A stretch of DNA of 64,000 nt from Candidatus Nanoarchaeia archaeon (GTDB lineage: Archaea; Nanobdellota; Nanobdellia; Woesearchaeales; ARS49). The stretch lies in assembly GCA_041488275.1 (NCBI GenBank), contig JBGPOY010000003.1, positions 14,092-78,091 on the forward strand, given 5' to 3'. This document shows, piece after piece, positions 7,143 to 63,708 of this stretch. The notes under the pieces were generated by a model that worked only from the letters and a program-made list of their open reading frames with translations, searched no databases and was not told where the DNA came from. Position 1 is the stretch's first letter. Each line of letters starts with the position of its first letter. The translations under genes and the position numbers were made by a program.

Positions 7143-7270
7143 TCCCCTTGCCCGGATTTGAACCGGGAACCTTGCGGGTTCTGCTGACTCACTGTCATCC
7201 TTGGCGTTGCGCCACGTCGGTGAGTGACTCTCGTCTACAGCCGCACGCTCTGCCGTTGAGCTACAAGGGG
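7143..7270 (-). tRNA. tRNA-Tyr(GTA) with a ~53-nt intron 3' of the anticodon
   Basis: Acceptor CCCCTTG/CAAGGGG carries C1-G72, the archaeal Tyr identity pair. D arm GCTC..GAGC, anticodon stem TGCGG/CCGCA with loop CTGTAG interrupted, T arm CCCGG-TTCAAAT-CCGGG. No encoded CCA. Confidence 0.85.
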
Positions 7271-8639: not shown

Positions 8640-8655
8640 ATTGCAGTTTATATAG
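8640..8655 (+). promoter_or_regulatory. Second TATA box upstream of tRNA-Lys
   Basis: gtttatata lies about 100 nt upstream of the mature tRNA-Lys 5' end. Confidence 0.4.
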
Positions 8656-8754
8656 ATTGAGTGCGCACACATGGAGGGAAGGTTCATCGGTTCTGGCAGG
8701 GGGAGTCGGCTCATTCGCAATCACGCAAAACTATCTGGCGTGGTTTGCATTAAA

Positions 8755-8828
8755 GGGCTGCTAGCTCAACCTGGCAGAGCAGCTGGCTTTTAACCAGCGG
8801 GTTAAGGGTTCAAATCCCTTGCAGCCCG
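8755..8828 (+). tRNA. tRNA-Lys(TTT)
   Basis: Acceptor GGGCTGC/GCAGCCC, anticodon stem GCTGG/CCAGC, loop CTTTTAA, T arm AAGGG-TTCAAAT-CCCTT. Confidence 0.95.
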
Positions 8829-8884
8829 TCAAGTGACGGGGTGCAAGCTCACCGAGCGCAACTCGGTGTTTGCTTGCAGCCCGT
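8818..8884 (+). repeat. 12-nt direct repeat of the tRNA-Lys 3' end bracketing a 43-nt hairpin-bearing insert
   Basis: cttgcagcccgt occurs at 8818-8829 and 8873-8884. The hairpin CACCGAG-CGCAA-CTCGGTG lies at 8850-8868. Confidence 0.7.
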
Positions 8885-12484: not shown

Positions 12485-15265
12485 ATGCCAAAAGCAAAAG
12501 CAAGCGCGGAAACGAAGAAGGACATCGCCGAGATGACGCCTGACGTCGCCGAAACGGTTGACGAAGACGAAGTCATGCTGAAGTCCGGAGACGTCGGCGC
12601 GGGAATGACGTCCGAGGAAGCCGCGGCTCCGGTCGCGGAAGTCTCTACGGATGCGGTTGAAAGCGCGAGCGCCGCTCCTCGTCGAGAACTTCCGATTGCC
12701 GCGCCTCAATACATTTTCAAGCAGGTCAAGTCCTTGGTGTTCGGCGTTCTCTCGCCGAAGATGATTAAGAAGATGGCGAGCGCCAAGATTGTCACTCCTG
12801 AACTCTATGACAAGGAGGGGTATCCGGTCGACGGCGGCCTTATGGACATCCGCCTCGGCGTCATCGACCCCGGCCTGCGCTGCAAGACGTGCGGCTGCAA
12901 GTTGAAGGAGTGCATCGGTCACTTCGGCTACATCGAGCTTGCACGACCGGTCGTCCACATCAAGTTCGTTCCCGTTATCCTTTCATTGCTCCGCAGCACC
13001 TGCCACGAATGCGGCAAAGTCCTGATTCCGAAGGAAAAAATCGAGAAGGCGAAGAACGTCCTCTCCAAGATTGAGCGCGAAGGCGGCTTGCGCGCGCGCA
13101 GAAAGGCCATCAAGACGATTATTGATTCTCTCAAGGCGGGCGCGAAGTGCGCGCACTGCAACGCGAAGCAGGCGAAGGTCAACCTCGAAAAGCCCACGAC
13201 GTTTGTCGAGGGAGAACGCCGCGTCTCGCCCATCGAAGTCCGCGCCCGTTTGGAAAAGATTCCCGACGAAGACGCGGCGTTGTTCGGATTGAACCCGAAG
13301 ACCGCGCGTCCGGAATGGATGATTCTCACGGTCTTGCCCGTTCCGCCGGTCACGATGCGACCCAGCATCACGCTCGAAACCGGTGAGCGTTCGGAAGACG
13401 ACCTCACCCATAAGATGGGCGACATTGTCCGTATCAACCAGCGCCTGTTCGAAAACATCAACGCGGGCGCTCCCGAAATCATCATTGAAGACTTGTGGGA
13501 CCTCTTGCAGTATCACGTGACGACGTTCTTCGACAACGACGTCGCGCAGCTGCCTCCCGCCCGCCACCGCAGCGGTCAGCCGCTGAAGACGCTCACCGAG
13601 CGCATCAAGAGCAAGGAAGGACGCATCCGACACAACCTCGCCGGAAAGCGCACCAACTTCTGCGCCCGTACGGTTATCTCTCCTGACGCCCGCATCAAGG
13701 TCAACGAAGTCGGCGTTCCGAAGGTCATCGCGATGAAGGTCACCGTGCCCGAAGTCGTGCAAGCGTGGAACATGGTCTACTTGAAGAAGTTCATCGAGCG
13801 CGGTCCGCACACCTATCCTGGCGCGAACTACGTTGTCCGTCCTGACGGCAAGAAAAAGAAGATTACCGAGGAAACCAAGGAAGCCGCGATTGAGGAGCTC
13901 CAGCCCGGCTACGTCGTCGAACGCCACATGATGGACGGCGACATCACGATTTTCAACCGACAACCGTGCCTGCACCGCATGAGCACGATGTGCCACCGCG
14001 TCAAGGTCCTGCCTGGACGCACGCTGCGATTGAACCCGACCGTCTGTGCCCCGTACAACGCGGACTTCGACGGTGACGAAATGAACCTGCACGTTCCTCA
14101 GACCGAAGAATCGCGCGCCGAAGCCGAAATCCTGATGGACGTCCAGACGCAGATTATTTCTCCGCGTTACGGACTGCCGGTCATCGGCGGCTTGCAGGAC
14201 GCGCTGTCGGGCAACTTCGCGCTCACGCGCGGCGGGGAAATGCCCCGCGAGGAAGCCATCGAATTCCTGATTCACATCGGTCTCACCGACGTCAGCAAGC
14301 TGCCGCACAAGAAGACCGTCAACGGCCGCGAGATTTTCAGCGTGCTCATGCCGGACGACTTCAATTTCAACGGCACCTCGCGAGCCGGAACGCCCGTTGT
14401 CATCAAGGACGGCAAGCTCGTCGAAGGAGTCATTGACGAAAACTCGCTCGGCGAGGGTTCGGGACACTTGCTCCGCGCGCTCCACCGCCAGTACGGTTCG
14501 GAAAAGACGATTGACCTGCTCTACAAGATTTTCACGCTCGGCAACGAATTCCTGCAAAAGACGGGCTTCAGCTGTCACATCTCGGACTACGACCTGCCCT
14601 CGTTCGTGCAGGAACAGATTGAAGCGACCATCAACGAGGCCGAAAACGAGATTCAGGGCGTCATCCAGCAGTTCCACGACGGCAAACTGGAAGCGTTCCC
14701 CGGACGCTCGATCGGCGAGACGCTTGAGTTCAAGATTCTCGAATTGCTCAACAAGGCGCGTAACAAAGCCGGACAGATTGTCCGCGAGCACGCCAAGAAG
14801 GACACGGACACCCGAATCATGGTCGACTCCGGCGCCCGCGGTAACATTCTCCAGCTCTCGCAAATCTCCGCCATCGTCGGCCAGCAGGCATTGCGCGGCA
14901 AACGCATCGAGAAGGGCTACCGCGGACGCACGCTGTCGTGCTTCAAGCGCGGCGATATTTCGCCGTTGGCTCGCGGCTTCGTGCGCAACAACTTCAAGCG
15001 CGGCTTGACTGCCCAGGAGTTCTTCTTCTGCAGCATCACGGGTCGCGACTCGCTGATGGACACCGCCCTGCGTACGCCGAAGTCAGGTTATCTCTATCGC
15101 CGCTTGGCGAACGCCATGCAGGACTTGCGCGTCGAGTACGACGGCACGGTCCGCGACGCGACGGGCAAGATTATCCAGTTCGCCTACGGAGAAGACAACA
15201 TCGACGTCTCGCGCAGCGAGGCCGGCAAAATCAACATCAAACGCATCATCGAATCGGTGGACTAA
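12485..15265 (+). CDS. rpoA1: RNA polymerase subunit A' (Rpo1N), with a possible ~75-aa acidic/Ala-rich N-terminal extension
   Basis: CKTCG...GHFGYIEL zinc region and the NADFDGDEMN catalytic loop. Homology to A' starts near residue 76. The ATG lies 1 nt after the rpoB1 stop. Confidence 0.93.
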   Translation: MPKAKASAETKKDIAEMTPDVAETVDEDEVMLKSGDVGAGMTSEEAAAPVAEVSTDAVESASAAPRRELPIAAPQYIFKQVKSLVFGVLSPKMIKKMASAKIVTPELYDKEGYPVDGGLMDIRLGVIDPGLRCKTCGCKLKECIGHFGYIELARPVVHIKFVPVILSLLRSTCHECGKVLIPKEKIEKAKNVLSKIEREGGLRARRKAIKTIIDSLKAGAKCAHCNAKQAKVNLEKPTTFVEGERRVSPIEVRARLEKIPDEDAALFGLNPKTARPEWMILTVLPVPPVTMRPSITLETGERSEDDLTHKMGDIVRINQRLFENINAGAPEIIIEDLWDLLQYHVTTFFDNDVAQLPPARHRSGQPLKTLTERIKSKEGRIRHNLAGKRTNFCARTVISPDARIKVNEVGVPKVIAMKVTVPEVVQAWNMVYLKKFIERGPHTYPGANYVVRPDGKKKKITEETKEAAIEELQPGYVVERHMMDGDITIFNRQPCLHRMSTMCHRVKVLPGRTLRLNPTVCAPYNADFDGDEMNLHVPQTEESRAEAEILMDVQTQIISPRYGLPVIGGLQDALSGNFALTRGGEMPREEAIEFLIHIGLTDVSKLPHKKTVNGREIFSVLMPDDFNFNGTSRAGTPVVIKDGKLVEGVIDENSLGEGSGHLLRALHRQYGSEKTIDLLYKIFTLGNEFLQKTGFSCHISDYDLPSFVQEQIEATINEAENEIQGVIQQFHDGKLEAFPGRSIGETLEFKILELLNKARNKAGQIVREHAKKDTDTRIMVDSGARGNILQLSQISAIVGQQALRGKRIEKGYRGRTLSCFKRGDISPLARGFVRNNFKRGLTAQEFFFCSITGRDSLMDTALRTPKSGYLYRRLANAMQDLRVEYDGTVRDATGKIIQFAYGEDNIDVSRSEAGKINIKRIIESVD

Positions 15266-17678: not shown

Positions 17679-18299
17679 ATGGCAGACGAAGTTGCAGCCC
17701 ACTCCGGAATTCTCGCGTTCAACACGTGGAACACCGAAGGTATCGTGGTCGAGGACCTGGGCTTGCAGCGCTACATCATCACCCAAGCGCGTATCGTTCC
17801 CAAGACCGGCGCGCGCTACGCGGGCCACAACTTCCACAAGAGCAAGGTCTTCATTGTCGAACGCCTGATTAACAAGGTCATGAACCCCGGCACGAAGTCG
17901 GGCAAGCACTGGCACAGCTCCGGCCACATGACGGGCATGGCTCCGCAGGCGTACGACATCGTCCGCCGCGCGTTCATCCTGATTGAACAGCGCCTGAAAG
18001 AAAACCCGATCAAGGTCTTCGTCAAAGCGTTGGAAAACGCGGCTCCGAGAGAAGAAATCGTCACGATTGAATACGGCGGCGCCCGCTATCCGAAAGCGGT
18101 CGAGTGCGCTCCGCAGCGACGCATTGACATCGCATTGCGGTACTTCACGCAGGGCGCGTACGGCAAGAGCTTCAACTCCAAAGTCTCCATCGAAAGCGCG
18201 CTCGCCGACGAAATCATTTCCGCGTACCGGCTCGACCAGAAGTCAACCGCCATCCAGAAAAAGCTGGAATTGGAACGACAAGCGGACGCGAGCAGATAA
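17679..18299 (+). CDS. rps7: Ribosomal protein uS7
   Basis: Starts at the internal ATG 17679, 1 nt after the S12 stop. REEIVTIEYGGARYPKAV and IDIALRY are typical of archaeal S7. Confidence 0.92.
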   Translation: MADEVAAHSGILAFNTWNTEGIVVEDLGLQRYIITQARIVPKTGARYAGHNFHKSKVFIVERLINKVMNPGTKSGKHWHSSGHMTGMAPQAYDIVRRAFILIEQRLKENPIKVFVKALENAAPREEIVTIEYGGARYPKAVECAPQRRIDIALRYFTQGAYGKSFNSKVSIESALADEIISAYRLDQKSTAIQKKLELERQADASR

Positions 18300-18445
18300 T
18301 TCTTGCGACTTCGTTGAACTAAGAGAAGAGTCTTAATCCTGACTGCGAAGCAGTCAGTTATGACCTGCTTCTCGCAGTGGAACGAGGAGCAATTTGCTCA
18401 AGCTTTTCGAAAGCTTGCGACATGCGGACGCGAGCAGATAATTCT
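18282..18445. repeat. 22-nt direct repeat of the rps7 3' end (gcggacgcgagcagataattct) flanking a 120-nt insert
   Basis: Exact copies at 18282-18303 and 18424-18445. Weaker similarity continues for about 15 nt beyond each copy. Confidence 0.8.
18309..18420 (+). repeat. Copy 1 of a ~110-nt structured repeat (second copy at 46053-46165)
   Basis: Collinear similarity to 46053-46165 with no gaps over the first 88 nt. Central hairpin CTGACTGC-GAA-GCAGTCAG at 18339-18357. Confidence 0.75.
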
Positions 18446-39224: not shown

Positions 39225-39944
39225 GTGCTGAAGGGGTTGGTGGCAGGATTACGGAAGCGTCCGAAGGCCGCGAACTTCCCGCGCCACATCGCCATCGCGG
39301 GTTCGGGTTCTCGTGCGTTCGCGCAGTCGCATCGCTTGAGTTTTGAGCAGGCGAGCGCGCTGAAGTTCCGCAACATCAAGGGCTGCATCGAAACGTGCGT
39401 CAAGCACCAAATTCCGATGCTCACGATTCATCTGCTGCCGCTGAACAGCGAGACCAACACCCTGTTTCCGCGCCTCATGGACGCGCTTGCCGTGTTCTTC
39501 GCCGATTTGAAATCGTGGGCGCCGGTGCACGCGCACCAAATCCGCATCAGCGTGCTCGGCAAATGGTACGATTTGCCCGGGCGAGTCGTGGAAAGCATCA
39601 AGGACGCGGTGCAGTCGACGCGCGACTACGACGCGTTCCACGTGAACTTCTGCGTGAACTATGACGGGCACGAGGAAATCGTGGACGCGTGCAAAATCGT
39701 CGCGCGGCAAGTGCTTGCAGGCAAGCTCGACCCCGACCACATCGACGCGCGGCTCATCAAGGAAAATAGTTACAGCTCAAACTTCGTTCCTCCCGACTTG
39801 CTCGTGAGGATGGGCACGCCGAAACTCGGCAGTCTCTTGCTATGGGACGCGCCCAGCGCGAAAATCTACGTTTCTTCTCACGCGTGGCAGGAATTCACTG
39901 CAAGGGATTTGCTTGCCGCCGTTGCGTGGTGGCAGAAAAATTAA
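39225..39944 (+). CDS. cis-Prenyltransferase (UppS)-fold protein lacking catalytic residues
   Basis: Collinear with UppS (HIAIAGSGSRAFA versus HVAIIMDGNGRWA; VNYDGHEEI; DLLVRMGTPKLGSLLLW versus DLVIRTGGEHRISNFLLW). The Asp, Arg and Ser positions are substituted. Confidence 0.65.
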   Translation: MLKGLVAGLRKRPKAANFPRHIAIAGSGSRAFAQSHRLSFEQASALKFRNIKGCIETCVKHQIPMLTIHLLPLNSETNTLFPRLMDALAVFFADLKSWAPVHAHQIRISVLGKWYDLPGRVVESIKDAVQSTRDYDAFHVNFCVNYDGHEEIVDACKIVARQVLAGKLDPDHIDARLIKENSYSSNFVPPDLLVRMGTPKLGSLLLWDAPSAKIYVSSHAWQEFTARDLLAAVAWWQKN

Positions 39945-45980: not shown

Positions 45981-46052
45981 GTCGTTCGTCGTTTTCCAAC
46001 TCAATCCGAGCTGCGACTCGGATGAGCCACAGGACGCATTGCGTCCTGTGTG

Positions 46053-60709: not shown

Positions 60710-60792
60710 CGCCGCCGGCAGGATTTGAACCTGCAGCCCCTTGCGGGAACGGTTTTCGAGACCGTCGCACTACCGGATTATGCGACAGCGGC
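60710..60792 (-). tRNA. tRNA-Ser(CGA)
   Basis: Acceptor GCCGCTG/CGGCGGC, anticodon stem ACGGT/ACCGT with loop CTCGAAA, long variable arm TCCCGCAAGGGGC, T arm GCAGG-TTCAAAT-CCTGC. Confidence 0.88.
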
Positions 60793-60891
60793 ATTGAAAG
60801 TGTGTACATGCGCCACGGAGGCTCGCTCCCTGACGACTGCCGATGTCGCGACCGCCGAGCGGCCTCGGCGTGGATGCGACAGCGGCATTGA
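60780..60891 (-). repeat. 18-nt direct repeat of the tRNA-Ser(CGA) 5' end plus leader, bracketing a 76-nt hairpin-bearing insert
   Basis: atgcgacagcggcattga occurs at 60780-60797 and 60874-60891. The hairpin gccgag-cggc-ctcggc lies at 60854-60869. Confidence 0.8.
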
Positions 60892-60897
60892 GTGTGG

Positions 60898-61360: not shown

Positions 61361-61445
61361 ATCAAATCACCTCTTTCACTCGTAAAATGATTATTCTGTA
61401 TATAAATTAAAGGGTTTTTTGAGAGGGCGCAGCGAGGAGAGAAAA

Positions 61446-61527
61446 GACGCCACCGCCCGGACAAACACCGAGACCGCTCGGTGAGCCCGTGCGGGGCAAT
61501 GTACTTTATGAGACGCCACCGCCCGGA
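61446..61527 (+). repeat. Two 16-nt copies of the tRNA-Ser(GGA) 3'-end sequence bracketing a 50-nt hairpin-bearing insert
   Basis: gacgccaccgcccgga occurs at 61446-61461 and 61512-61527. The last 14-15 nt equal 63378-63391 inside tRNA-Ser(GGA). The hairpin caccgag-accg-ctcggtg lies at 61466-61483. Confidence 0.8.
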
Positions 61528-61638
61528 GCACTAGCGTTCAACGCAGACGCTTACAGGCTGTGACATGATCTAAGTTCTTGAAAACACCCGTGGATGGGAG
61601 CTTCCAGGTCTACTGAGTTTCACAGACGAGAAGTTCTA

Positions 61639-62301
61639 TTAAAGTCTTTTGGCCAGCTCTTGATACGCGACAGTGATGTATGGCAGAGCGAGATTAACAG
61701 TCTTTAGGGGAACGTTAATCATCGGATTATGCACGCCAGTATCCCCGAGGAATTTGACTCCGTTGAGTTCTTCCGCAGTCTTTGGCATCAAATACGGCTT
61801 TGTACCCACTGGATGGCTGCTTGCCATGCCAATCATCGCACCCAAGCCAAGAAGGTGTCCCTTAGCATTCTTCAGCGTATCGAGCTGTTTGTCTCGTGCG
61901 AAGACGTGGAAGATCAATTTTTCCAAGATTTTCCGCAACAAAAAGGCCGTGCAATCCCCACTCACTCCTGCGTTGTGCTTCAAATCGCGTAATTCCGAAG
62001 GACAAATCTTCTGAAGCACGGGAAGCACGTCATCAGGAATAACATCCTGCACAACAACCACTTTTGGCGGATATCTTTGTGCGTATTGCTCTCTATATTG
62101 CCGCAAGTACTTCGCCCTCTTCAGAGCCATGCGCAAGCTGGACGCTGTCGGATGACAGCCGTCCTTGGAAAGAGCTTCGACAATCTGTTGCCTCACCTTC
62201 TCACTCTTGAAGAAGCCGCCGTGCCAAAGACGCACCAAAGATGTCGGTACCGAGTTACTCTTCATCTTCTTCCTCATCCACGTACGGATGCTTCTGGACA
62301 T
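61639..62301 (-). CDS. Hypothetical protein with N-terminal wHTH-like segment (islet gene)
   Basis: 220 aa. IVEALSKDGCHPTASSLRMALKRAKYL resembles the neighbouring 86-aa protein. Confidence 0.5.
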   Translation of the reverse strand: MSRSIRTWMRKKMKSNSVPTSLVRLWHGGFFKSEKVRQQIVEALSKDGCHPTASSLRMALKRAKYLRQYREQYAQRYPPKVVVVQDVIPDDVLPVLQKICPSELRDLKHNAGVSGDCTAFLLRKILEKLIFHVFARDKQLDTLKNAKGHLLGLGAMIGMASSHPVGTKPYLMPKTAEELNGVKFLGDTGVHNPMINVPLKTVNLALPYITVAYQELAKRL

Positions 62302-62515
62302 ACGCGTATTTACCGGGCTTCCCTTTCCGCGTAAGGAACTTAGCTCTCTGCAGGGCCTTCATCAGCCCTTTGTCCGTGAAGTTATAGCCGTCGGCTTCCA
62401 AGGCCTCCTGTATCTCGCCGACATTCTTCAACTTCAGAAATTTCTTTGCCTTCCACAACATCTTGAGCGCATCGGGTGCTGTTTTCGCAATCGTCATCTT
62501 CGCACGTACCTCCAT
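62255..62515 (-). CDS. Small wHTH-like protein (islet gene)
   Basis: 86 aa. IQEALEADGYNFTDKGLMKALQRAKFL, with an acidic tail. Confidence 0.5.
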   Translation of the reverse strand: MEVRAKMTIAKTAPDALKMLWKAKKFLKLKNVGEIQEALEADGYNFTDKGLMKALQRAKFLTRKGKPGKYAYVQKHPYVDEEEDEE

Positions 62516-62883
62516 AACTTATTTTCCTCCATTCTTCGCAGTTCCTTGCGGCGCGTCAGGCCGAGCAATACTCCTGACAACGTTGTAATCGGTACGAACA
62601 CGCCTCTGGATTCGAGTGTTCGCTTTACGTCAACAATACCGATAGGCTTGTCGAATTCACCGTCGACAAGAAGTTCGCGAACATAATCAGTTACCGAATG
62701 CTTTGATTTTCCTGCTTCCGATTTGTGCGGCTTCGTGCTTGGTTTGCTCGCGGTTTCTTCAACTTCAGGTGCGGCGTACTCGCGCATGATTCTTGCGACT
62801 TCGTCGTGGCTTCCCTCGACGACAATGGTCGTACCGTTCTTTGTTTTAATGTGTGCTTTTACCATGTGATAACCACCAAGCAA
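62494..62883 (-). CDS. Hypothetical protein with C-terminal wHTH-like segment (islet gene)
   Basis: 129 aa. VDVKRTLESRGVFVPITTLSGVLLGLTRRKEL. Confidence 0.45.
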   Translation of the reverse strand: MLGGYHMVKAHIKTKNGTTIVVEGSHDEVARIMREYAAPEVEETASKPSTKPHKSEAGKSKHSVTDYVRELLVDGEFDKPIGIVDVKRTLESRGVFVPITTLSGVLLGLTRRKELRRMEENKLWRYVRR

Positions 62884-62986
62884 TATCGCGATAGTGCGAT
62901 ATAAAAACCTTTCGGATTACGAGGGTCAGCAGCCAAGAATAAAGCTCACGCTAGAAGAATCGCAGCCTTCTCCCCTCAGAAGTGCC

Positions 62987-63214
62987 TTAGATGTTTTCCA
63001 GCACTGCGACTACAACGGCCATCACTAGGCAGATGAAAATGACTGCTGCGATGTCCGCCGACGGTGCTATCGCTTGCGCGAGTTGCCAAAATGCGTCGAG
63101 TATTTGGGTAATTGCCGACATTTCTTGTTGTGTACCTCCTTTAATGTAGACCTGAGCCAAACTCAAGCTAACCAACGCAGCGCTATGGCAGGCTTTTAAC
63201 TGTTGAGAATCCAT
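62987..63214 (-). CDS. Small hypothetical membrane protein (islet gene)
   Basis: 75 aa with a C-terminal TM helix AAVIFICLVMAVVVAVL. Confidence 0.4.
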   Translation of the reverse strand: MDSQQLKACHSAALVSLSLAQVYIKGGTQQEMSAITQILDAFWQLAQAIAPSADIAAVIFICLVMAVVVAVLENI

Positions 63215-63377
63215 GTCCAGTGTCCACTGTCGAGCAGCAAGAATCTCTACCCTGAACGCCGCACCCTGACGTTAGGGTGAAAACAGGCAGAAAAACGTGT
63301 GGCGTCTATGGTTGAGACAGGACGCTCACCGTAGAACTGGACCAAAACGCGTCAGGCGTTTGTGGTTCAAAATAGAA

Positions 63378-63461
63378 CGCCACCGCCCGGATTTGAACCG
63401 GGAAATCCTTGCGGAAACAAGCTTTCCAGGCTTGCGCCTTACCAGGTTGGGCCACGGTGGC
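63378..63461 (-). tRNA. tRNA-Ser(GGA)
   Basis: Acceptor GCCACCG/CGGTGGC, 3-bp D stem, anticodon stem CAAGC/GCTTG with loop CTGGAAA, long variable arm, T arm CCCGG-TTCAAAT-CCGGG. Confidence 0.9.
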
Positions 63462-63561
63462 ATGAATGTCAGTGTGAAATGCACAGGCGCGCCGGCGCCG
63501 TGCACGCTGCCGCTGGCCTAGCCCGAGCGGACTCGGGCGTGGGTCACGGTGGCATGAATGT
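63453..63561 (-). repeat. 17-nt direct repeat of the tRNA-Ser(GGA) 5' end plus leader, bracketing a 75-nt hairpin-bearing insert
   Basis: cacggtggcatgaatgt occurs at 63453-63469 and 63545-63561. The hairpin gcccgag-cgga-ctcgggc lies at 63521-63538, and an imperfect palindrome at 63480-63504. Confidence 0.8.
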
Positions 63562-63572
63562 GTACTGGCAAA

Positions 63573-63646
63573 TGGCGGTGGGGAGATTTGAACTCTCGAC
63601 CTGCGGGTTATGAATCCGCCGCTCTACCAGGCTGAGCTACACCGCC
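63573..63646 (-). tRNA. tRNA with CAT anticodon (elongator Met or Ile2 type)
   Basis: Acceptor GGCGGTG/CACCGCC, D arm GCTC/GAGC, loop TTCATAA. There are two A:C mismatches, at 31:39 and 50:64. TATA ctttttaaag lies about 25 nt upstream. Confidence 0.75.
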
Positions 63647-63708
63647 GAGAGAACGCTCTCGAAGGTGCTTTAAAAAGCTTATTATAGAAGTGACAATAGG
63701 ATTCCCGC

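Follow-up and report, generated by a model that had tools for sequence, protein, structure and literature searches.

The stretch of DNA analysed here, 64,000 nt of contig JBGPOY010000003.1 (hereafter the window), belongs to an uncultivated Woesearchaeota-like archaeon of the DPANN group and contains genes for an archaeal histone, RpoH, and split RpoA and RpoB. By RpoB'', the nearest genomes are metagenome-assembled genomes labelled Woesearchaeota or Nanoarchaeota, at 65–80% identity, and homologues of a neighbouring protein bear the same names. On the minus strand, tRNA-Met(CAT) (63573–63646; predicted by ARAGORN; Rfam 63.7 bits) and an intact tRNA-Ser(GGA) (63378–63461, Rfam 54.9 bits; 63377–63462 according to ARAGORN) are separated by a 75-nt insert (63470–63544, written below on the plus strand, away from the tRNA-Ser gene), which is bracketed by two copies of the 5' end of tRNA-Ser(GGA). 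On balance, we favour the view that this segment is an integrated non-coding element of miniature size, or else what erosion has left of a larger one, that arrived by site-specific, att-type recombination with an enzyme acting in trans.

The functional copy of the repeat (63453–63469, minus strand) is contiguous with the intact tRNA-Ser(GGA), while the displaced copy (63545–63561, minus strand) consists of 8 leader nt followed by tRNA nt 1–9 and begins 11 nt past the 3' end of tRNA-Met, as follows from the tRNA coordinates. A preliminary description of this DNA had reported such a 17-nt duplication around a 75-nt insert, and our data bear it out: CACGGTGGCATGAATGT occurs exactly twice in the window, allowing up to two mismatches adds no further site, and two matches were reached in none of 100 dinucleotide shuffles. 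With one mismatch the repeat grows to 22 nt (63448–63469 vs 63540–63561), as the displaced copy extends imperfectly to 63540 and thereby takes in tRNA nt 10–14, the single mismatch being at 63544. The inner boundary thus falls at tRNA positions 9–14, in the D-loop. The insert leaves the mature RNA uninterrupted, as the tRNA-Ser(GGA) gene is contiguous and reaches its 54.9 bits without splicing.

Reading away from the tRNA, the insert is composed of a proximal tail (63470–63480), a GC hairpin (63481–63503), an imperfect inverted copy of the repeat (63506–63520), a second hairpin (63521–63538) with the plus-strand sequence GCCCGAG-CGGA-CTCGGGC, and a bulged G (63539). The distal hairpin had been recognised previously, in its minus-strand form GCCCGAG-TCCG-CTCGGGC, as had the terminal ...GCATTTCACACTG, and these and the proximal GC hairpin are all present. 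What had been overlooked is that 63506–63520 pairs with the displaced copy (63540–63553), so that a long imperfect hairpin (63506–63553, plus strand) encloses the distal hairpin; overlooked as well were an insert behind the gene for ribosomal protein S7 and a 1.85-kb segment at 61528–63374, both described below. The ends of the insert, CAGTGTGAAA... and ...GGGCGTGGGT, are not inverted repeats. It contains no open reading frame (ORF), and no template for its sequence was found elsewhere in the window. Searches against Rfam 15 returned only tRNAs above the gathering score, and nothing credible at E ≤ 1.

The tRNA-Met promoter CTTTTTAAAG, at about 63669–63678 on the minus strand, is the sole TATA-like box upstream of the Met-Ser pair. 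As the insert itself is devoid of such a box, tRNA-Ser(GGA) is probably co-transcribed with tRNA-Met. The outer stem of the long hairpin contains 4 G-T wobbles and forms well on the plus strand only: the predicted fold has a z-score of −3.0 as plus-strand DNA and of −1.5 as minus-strand RNA. When the repeat was exchanged for those of other tRNAs, the plus strand alone showed a preference for its own repeat (−11.6 vs a mean of −4.3 kcal/mol).

This insert is one of five in the window, four of which are linked to tRNA genes. Three sibling inserts had been proposed, at tRNA-Ser(CGA), at tRNA-Lys and at 61445–61527, and all three are real and carry a CCGAG..CTCGG hairpin. At the 5' end of tRNA-Ser(CGA) (60780–60896, minus strand), an insert at 60798–60873 lies between repeats at 60780–60797 and 60874–60891 (23 nt with 2 mismatches), with its hairpin at 60852–60872 and an inverted copy at 60838–60850. 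At the 3' end of tRNA-Lys(TTT) (8818–8884, plus strand), the repeat CTTGCAGCCCGT is found at 8818–8829 and 8873–8884; the insert between the copies (8830–8872) comprises the inverted copy ACGGGGTGCAAGC and a hairpin at 8850–8868. At the 3' end of tRNA-Ser(GGA) (61445–61527, minus strand), two copies of AGACGCCACCGCCCGGA enclose an insert at 61462–61510 with a hairpin at 61466–61483. Each of the four repeats matches its own tRNA only, as had been claimed. The fifth insert, of 120 nt and with two hairpins (18304–18423), follows the S7 gene (18282–18445, plus strand), and its 22-nt repeat (18282–18303 and 18424–18445) includes the S7 stop codon.

When the four tRNA-linked inserts are written in one common orientation, all share the module CMMAC-RCCGAG-NN-CGCTCGGY, in which AC..CC...CGCTCGG is invariant, and about 22 nt of this module are identical in the Lys and Ser(GGA) 3' inserts, the loop excepted. 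The motif CCGAG-N4-5-CTCGG occurs four times in the window, each time within a tRNA-linked insert; a further match, with a 6-nt loop, is located at 46006. Judged by this shared sequence, the four inserts are homologous. Their elements follow the same order toward the tRNA, namely the displaced gene-end copy, the conserved module, a variable part, the functional copy and the tRNA itself. Inserts at 5' ends thereby mirror those at 3' ends in their layout. The variable part had been thought to end in ATGTAC or CACACT in each insert, which holds for three of the four. A hairpin of 6–9 bp, 0–7 nt from the displaced copy, is found in essentially every insert, and in most compact inserts this hairpin has on its tRNA side an inverted, imperfect copy of the repeat, with which it and the displaced copy form one long hairpin. 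There are ten short-range repeats of ≥12 nt in the window, and four of these are at tRNA ends, among them three of the four that reach ≥17 nt, the remaining one being that of the S7 insert.

Some observations on tRNA-Lys stand apart from these inserts. In the region 8648–8754, its TATA box TTTATATA is about 100 nt before the mature 5' end, compared to about 30 nt in the other tRNAs, and this long leader may be a decayed 5' insert. A 14-mer of the tRNA-Lys insert hairpin (GCTCACCGAGCGCA) recurs at 13591–13604 within the rpoA' coding region, where about 0.02 occurrences would be expected by chance. At 39898–39911, remote from any predicted tRNA, the T-loop/acceptor junction of tRNA-Lys recurs as an inverted 14-mer (CAAATCCCTTGCAG).

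Such an order of direct, inverted and direct gene-end copies resembles an inverted triplication, and might arise as a by-product of replication or repair at highly transcribed genes, where template switching or snap-back synthesis would yield the direct and inverted copies together with filler DNA. The targets, tRNAs and S7, are indeed highly expressed, and inverted T-arm fragments (GGATTTGAAC) directly follow the tRNA in some long inserts. However, the hairpin module is conserved across sites and genomes and is not locally templated, and the architecture is too regular for such a process, which we consider highly improbable.

The 1.85-kb segment at the 3' end of tRNA-Ser(GGA) (61528–63374, minus strand) is flanked by ACGCCACCGCCCGGA at 63377–63391 and 61513–61527. 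It stands in tandem with the mini-insert at 61462–61510, so that three cores of the 15-nt tRNA-Ser(GGA) 3'-end repeat occur in a row, and its distal end (61513–61566) is built like the mini-inserts, from an inverted copy, a hairpin and a repeat. We refer to it as an island, as it carries four small ORFs on one strand (129, 86, 220 and 75 aa), none of which matched Pfam, PHROG, NCBIfam or PADLOC. At 40–48% identity, at least 236 homologues of the 220-aa protein are found in bacteria and archaea, and these are usually encoded behind similar small winged-helix genes; on one bacterial contig the homologue adjoins the 3' end of a tRNA-Ala. The 220-aa protein had been a candidate for the recombinase, but its predicted structure (predicted local distance difference test score 86) combines a winged helix with a domain weakly similar to HEPN proteins, and on this model the protein is to be regarded as cargo and not as a recombinase. 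The island looks like a promiscuous toxin- or defence-like module. A viral or plasmid origin was rejected, as a scan of IMG/VR with the 220-aa protein found nothing. Contigs of 1.8–2.2 kb with homologues of this protein were considered as possible circular forms of the island, but show no terminal overlap and are fragments.

For comparison, we retrieved loci of relatives by means of neighbouring proteins (57 tRNAs), added 30 metagenomic tRNA-Ser loci, and scanned 720 kb of such loci (numbered with the prefix L) for repeats. Inserts were detected by repeat and regular-expression scans in place of a covariance model, as a MAFFT alignment of 15 hairpins took no account of structure. A terminal duplication with a short insert was found at 17 of the 57 tRNAs, two of these being coincidental T-loop matches. 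A 3' insert is present in about 12 of the 30 tRNA-Ser loci, and a 5' insert in three or more (L040, L046, L055), probably five if L060 and L065 are counted. About 28 of the approximately 40 non-repetitive short-range repeats of ≥14 nt in the 720 kb are located at tRNA ends, and overall about a quarter of the tRNA genes in related contigs bear inserts. The inserts measure 40–130 nt, and there is a single cargo-bearing case among about 35. Repeats range from 12 to 23 nt, with an inner boundary at tRNA positions 13–16 in 5' inserts and 57–63, in the T-loop/T-stem, in 3' inserts.

The same insert family may occupy different tRNA genes. One 5' family (CAAACTTTTT..AAAAAGTTTG..GTGGGG..CCCCACGACAT) occurs in L007 next to tRNA-Met as well as tRNA-Ala, and again next to the tRNA-Ser of L055 and of L060, each time with the repeat of its own target. 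One 3' family has reached three Ser isoacceptors in L039 and L063, of which two share a contig. Conversely, two tRNA-Ser(TGA) haplotypes of one metagenome (Ga0247727; L046 and L055), which are 97–100% identical in the flanks and the tRNA, carry unrelated 5' inserts. At the tRNA-Lys of L020, two different units form a tandem array. Of the lineages with a tRNA-Lys upstream of rpoH, 5 carry an insert there and at least 8 do not. The tRNA-Ser(GGA) genes of L039 (whose tRNAs stand in the order seen in the window) and of L007 are directly preceded by a promoter and have no insert. These insert-free orthologues belong to distant relatives. The preliminary description had proposed to look for empty sites in which tRNA-Met is followed directly by tRNA-Ser; synteny via a neighbouring 163-aa protein was tried as a route to the orthologous Met-Ser site and abandoned, as its homologues are not syntenic.

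In L007, L040, L046 and L055 the original promoter remains with the truncated upstream copy, and in L007 the insert contributes a TATA box of its own, some 30 nt ahead of the intact tRNA.

Several of these loci show peculiarities of their own. In L046 a 5' half of the tRNA (nt 1–35), itself interrupted by an intron-like insertion of 50 nt, is found upstream of the intact gene. L055 carries a further insertion on the 3' side, of 146 nt, which has perfect inverted repeats of 14 bp (CAAGAACCACTTGC) but no obvious duplication. In L039 (552–3163), the tRNA order Ser(GGA)-Glu(CTC)-Ser(CGA) is that of the window while the intervening genes, which encode a nuclease, membrane proteins and a PIN/AbrB toxin-antitoxin pair, are unrelated, and upstream of tRNA-Glu there is a structured region of family-1 type; the tRNA cluster is a hot spot for variable genes. 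Introns were seen as well: tRNA-Tyr(GTA) of the window (7143–7270, minus strand) has one of 56 nt, and the tRNAs of relatives L012–L037 have one or more long introns, some of them in the T-loop, which hold insert-like hairpins. The tRNA intron of L019 in addition holds a copy of the adjacent exon (GTTCAAATCT).

According to the reading that we favour, tRNA-Ser(GGA) would originally have followed tRNA-Met at a distance of 19 nt, with a direct Met-Ser junction reading CCATTTGCCAGTACACATTCATGCCACCGTGGCCCAACC. The incoming DNA would have carried or regenerated the leader and tRNA nt 1–9(14), which kept the gene intact, and the original 5' end would have been pushed 92 nt upstream, where it now adjoins tRNA-Met. 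The two repeat copies would then represent the attL and attR cores, and the hairpin that abuts the displaced copy, together with the imperfect inverted core copy, a recombination arm that may work either by folding as a single strand or as a palindrome to which protein binds. The element encodes nothing, and we infer that a recombinase must act in trans. Members of the family to which it belongs are found in Woesearchaeales at the 3' ends of tRNA genes, where they involve the part from the T-loop onward, at tRNA 5' ends, where the part between leader and D-loop is involved, and now and then behind protein genes, at their 3' ends. Of the two interpretations offered in the preliminary description, site-specific insertion with duplication of an att core or target is favoured by the spread of insert families over different tRNA genes, the differing haplotypes, the arrays, the cargo-bearing island, the S7 case, the insert-free orthologues and the match to known att repeats; both the direction of the event and the question whether the short inserts are mobile units or stumps of larger elements are a matter of interpretation.

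Several points weigh against this reading. No recombinase was seen within the mini-inserts, on the island or among the annotated genes of the window and of the loci, so that the trans-acting recombinase that the preliminary description had proposed to search for did not turn up there. The two hairpin modules are absent from IMG/VR, in free or viral form. There is no empty allele of the Met-Ser site in its own population: all public contigs that share window proteins are 99.98–100% identical to the window, and all assemblies are identical at this site. The narrow size range of 40–130 nt, with one cargo case among about 35, is odd for random erosion of large elements, and to our knowledge circles of 60–150 nt are not integrase substrates. 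An inverted core copy is no standard feature of an attP, and in a test of duplex energy against shuffled inserts this copy was significant in just 5 of 25 inserts, while its pairing is weak or absent in several of the longer ones. Finally, the covarying stems of the Lys hairpins and a repeat that tracks its tRNA would also be explained by selection on a folded strand.

A transposon-like element is an alternative to att-type recombination: a transposase, or an enzyme similar to that of casposons, would make staggered cuts 12–23 nt apart at gene ends, and fill-in would generate the repeats around a non-autonomous insert. This agrees with the fact that each repeat is local sequence, including leader or trailer bases and, in one case, a stop codon, and with casposons, which target tRNA 3' ends, occur in tandem and duplicate 14–15 bp (PMC6563490). 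It is quite unlikely nonetheless, as the 12–23 nt spread of the repeats is too wide for the stagger of a single enzyme, terminal inverted repeats are lacking with only one end conserved, and neither a Cas1 nor a transposase was seen.

Folding of the inserts bears on two further explanations. Stems are GC-rich or AT-rich depending on the genome. Among the orthologous tRNA-Lys inserts the stems covary: in three species the fold is kept by compensatory changes, and the distal repeat follows the tRNA. Such covariation under differing sequence argues for a single strand that folds rather than for a protein-binding site of fixed sequence. In the swap test, which was significant overall and bears out the inverted copy for most compact inserts, the insert's own repeat stabilised the fold more than the repeats of other tRNAs in 10 of 17 3' inserts (Wilcoxon p = 0.0007), while 5' inserts gave a mixed outcome. 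The tRNA-sense strand folds better in 15 of the 17 3' inserts. In about 14 of them the hairpin ends in a conserved closing G, and an unpaired TT separates it from the displaced copy. Purine-purine mismatches recur in the stems (A-G 8 times, G-G 5 times), often at tRNA position 69. Wobble pairs in 3' inserts number 37 on the tRNA-sense strand vs 11 on the other; this was rejected as a signal of the strand under selection, since the G-rich acceptor 3' strand can explain it and 5' inserts are unbiased (22 vs 22). Predicted folds contain 1x1 and 1x3 loops and no two 3-nt bulges 4 bp apart, which discards a bulge-helix-bulge (BHB) intron. Three other candidates were dropped as well: a C/D-box sRNA or K-turn, as the sequence has no box motifs; a retroviral-type primer-binding site, as the complement of the tRNA 3' end does not include CCA pairing; and mimicry of the T-arm, as CTCGG-N7-CCGGG fits tRNA-Ser only and not tRNA-Lys.

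The preliminary description had also entertained a pre-tRNA spacer kept in concert with its tRNA. In such a case the hairpin would be a selected part of the leader or trailer, be it a terminator, a processing or decoy minihelix or a protected end, and the tRNA-end copy would be maintained since it must pair or compete with the acceptor strand of the tRNA. The covariation among tRNA-Lys orthologues and the better folding of the tRNA-sense strand would suit this explanation, as would the T-rich run that follows the hairpin in AT-rich relatives and the position of the Met-Ser insert within a probable co-transcript. However, the mirror-image arrangement at 5' ends means that the transcript would bear the opposite strand of the module, and the stem of the Met-Ser insert is poor on precisely the transcribed strand. 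Some 5' inserts of relatives have their own promoter downstream of the hairpin, which therefore lies outside the tRNA transcript, and one insert is located behind a protein gene (S7). Most orthologous tRNAs do without an insert, tandem copies and a 1.85-kb version with cargo exist, and no Rfam family matches. A function as RNA is very unlikely in the light of these arguments.

A special form of the att-type reading, to which we assign a rather small chance, would make the att site itself a folded single strand, in which inverted copy, hairpin and repeat mimic the double-stranded end of a tRNA gene. One strand exchange with the target followed by replication would then insert a circle, the mini-inserts would be empty cassettes and the island a loaded one. 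The sequence of repeat, variable part, inverted copy, hairpin and repeat is exactly the order in which core, ORF, inverse core, stem and core follow one another when an integron cassette is integrated, and the distal end alone is conserved while the proximal end is variable. The structure is kept while its sequence differs, the G/TT motif and the purine-purine mismatches recur, the Met-Ser stem pairs on one strand only by virtue of its 4 G-T wobbles, and both arrays and a version with cargo exist. There are precedents, as integrons have been found in the phylum Nanoarchaeota (PMC9668308) and the CTX phage integrates as a folded single strand (PMC3442271). Against this, the attC boxes RYYYAAC and GTTRRRY are not present, the GTT being unpaired, without an AAC partner and not followed by RRRY, and neither an IntI-like nor any other recombinase was seen nearby. 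Pairing of the inverted copy is weak or lacking in several longer inserts, and the strand bias of wobbles does not extend to 5' inserts and can be compositional in 3' inserts.

Whatever its mechanism, a family of tiny hairpin inserts that duplicate tRNA ends in Woesearchaeota-type DPANN archaea is apparently undescribed. If the inserts are mobile or depend on an integrase, they would be the smallest att-flanked integrative units described, and in a major DPANN lineage whose genomes are very small they would affect about a quarter of all tRNA genes. They shift promoters off tRNA genes, create partial tRNA copies at D-loop and T-loop positions, and single out tRNA ends as places where foreign gene modules can enter, the module of 1.85 kb having bacterial homologues. 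By analogy with integrons one may go further and suppose, although we regard this as unlikely, that Woesearchaeales hold undescribed cassette-like elements whose att site is a folded single-strand hairpin that imitates the end of the target tRNA and can thus be retargeted to any tRNA end, most of these elements being empty, with a length of 45–130 nt, and few carrying genes. If so, insertions at the D-loop and T-loop would be a direct source of tRNA fragments, of displaced promoters and perhaps of the non-canonical introns and split tRNAs of DPANN archaea. The origin of fragmented, intron-bearing and split archaeal tRNA genes becomes testable with existing complete genomes and reads. In practice, both the annotation of tRNAs and the calling of integration sites can be led astray by such duplicated ends.

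The claim that no element of this size and architecture has been described agrees with our searches of the literature, in which no description of such elements was found, and of Rfam. Among systems that share some of their properties, MITEs (miniature inverted-repeat transposable elements) are likewise small, non-coding, structured, multicopy and dependent on an enzyme in trans. The inserts differ from these in that they lack terminal inverted repeats, have repeats of 12–23 nt vs 2–10 nt, and are strictly targeted to gene ends. With casposons they have in common archaeal tRNA 3' ends as targets, tandem copies and duplications of about 14–15 bp, and they differ by the absence of terminal inverted repeats and of Cas1 and PolB, by a variable repeat length and by their tiny size. 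Disrupted archaeal tRNA genes (those with non-canonical BHB introns, split tRNAs and 5' fragments) also occur in DPANN and other archaea, and partial tRNA copies next to structured inserts are found in both (L046 being an example), although here the tRNA is intact without splicing and the predicted folds have no bulge-helix-bulge motif.

Integron cassettes integrate by recombination of attC with attI, and CTX phage by recombination of a hairpin attP with dif. The inserts resemble attC and the CTX attP in topology, in the conservation of the 3' end only, in an imperfect hairpin of variable sequence with extrahelical bases, in the formation of arrays, and in cargo that does not include a recombinase. 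They are unlike them in having no attC boxes and a stem that mimics 12–17 nt of the end of a tRNA gene instead of a 7-bp core or dif. They are unlike integrons, too, in that no IntI/attI platform was seen in the annotated loci, arrays do not exceed two units, and the targets are scattered tRNA genes.

The closest likeness in terms of targets and repeats is to elements of archaea that tyrosine recombinases have integrated into tRNA genes, including eroded ones and others, similar to cis-mobilizable elements (CIMEs), that have att flanks but no integrase. The att repeats of archaeal tyrosine recombinases measure 8–25 bp, with a median of 17 bp, and their targets are 3'-distal and rarely 5'-distal parts of tRNA genes as well as 3'-distal parts of coding sequences including the stop codon, with tandem re-use of sites (PMC6563490). 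A 1.8-kb element that encodes a recombinase is also documented to have left a 5' fragment of a tRNA behind (PMC3293823). The inserts differ from such elements by their narrow size range of 40–130 nt without any gene, by their presence at about a quarter of tRNA genes, and by a hairpin that always abuts the displaced copy, often with an inverted core copy. An integrase gene inside the element is missing, as the 75-nt insert has no ORF and the ORFs of the island match no family. In other respects the correspondence is close: the repeats rebuild the target gene, in our case an intact tRNA-Ser(GGA), the block of identity extends from a tRNA loop to the end of the gene, the same targets are used, and sites are re-used in tandem. 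Insert-free orthologous sites in distant relatives, though not in the window's own population, may represent empty sites.

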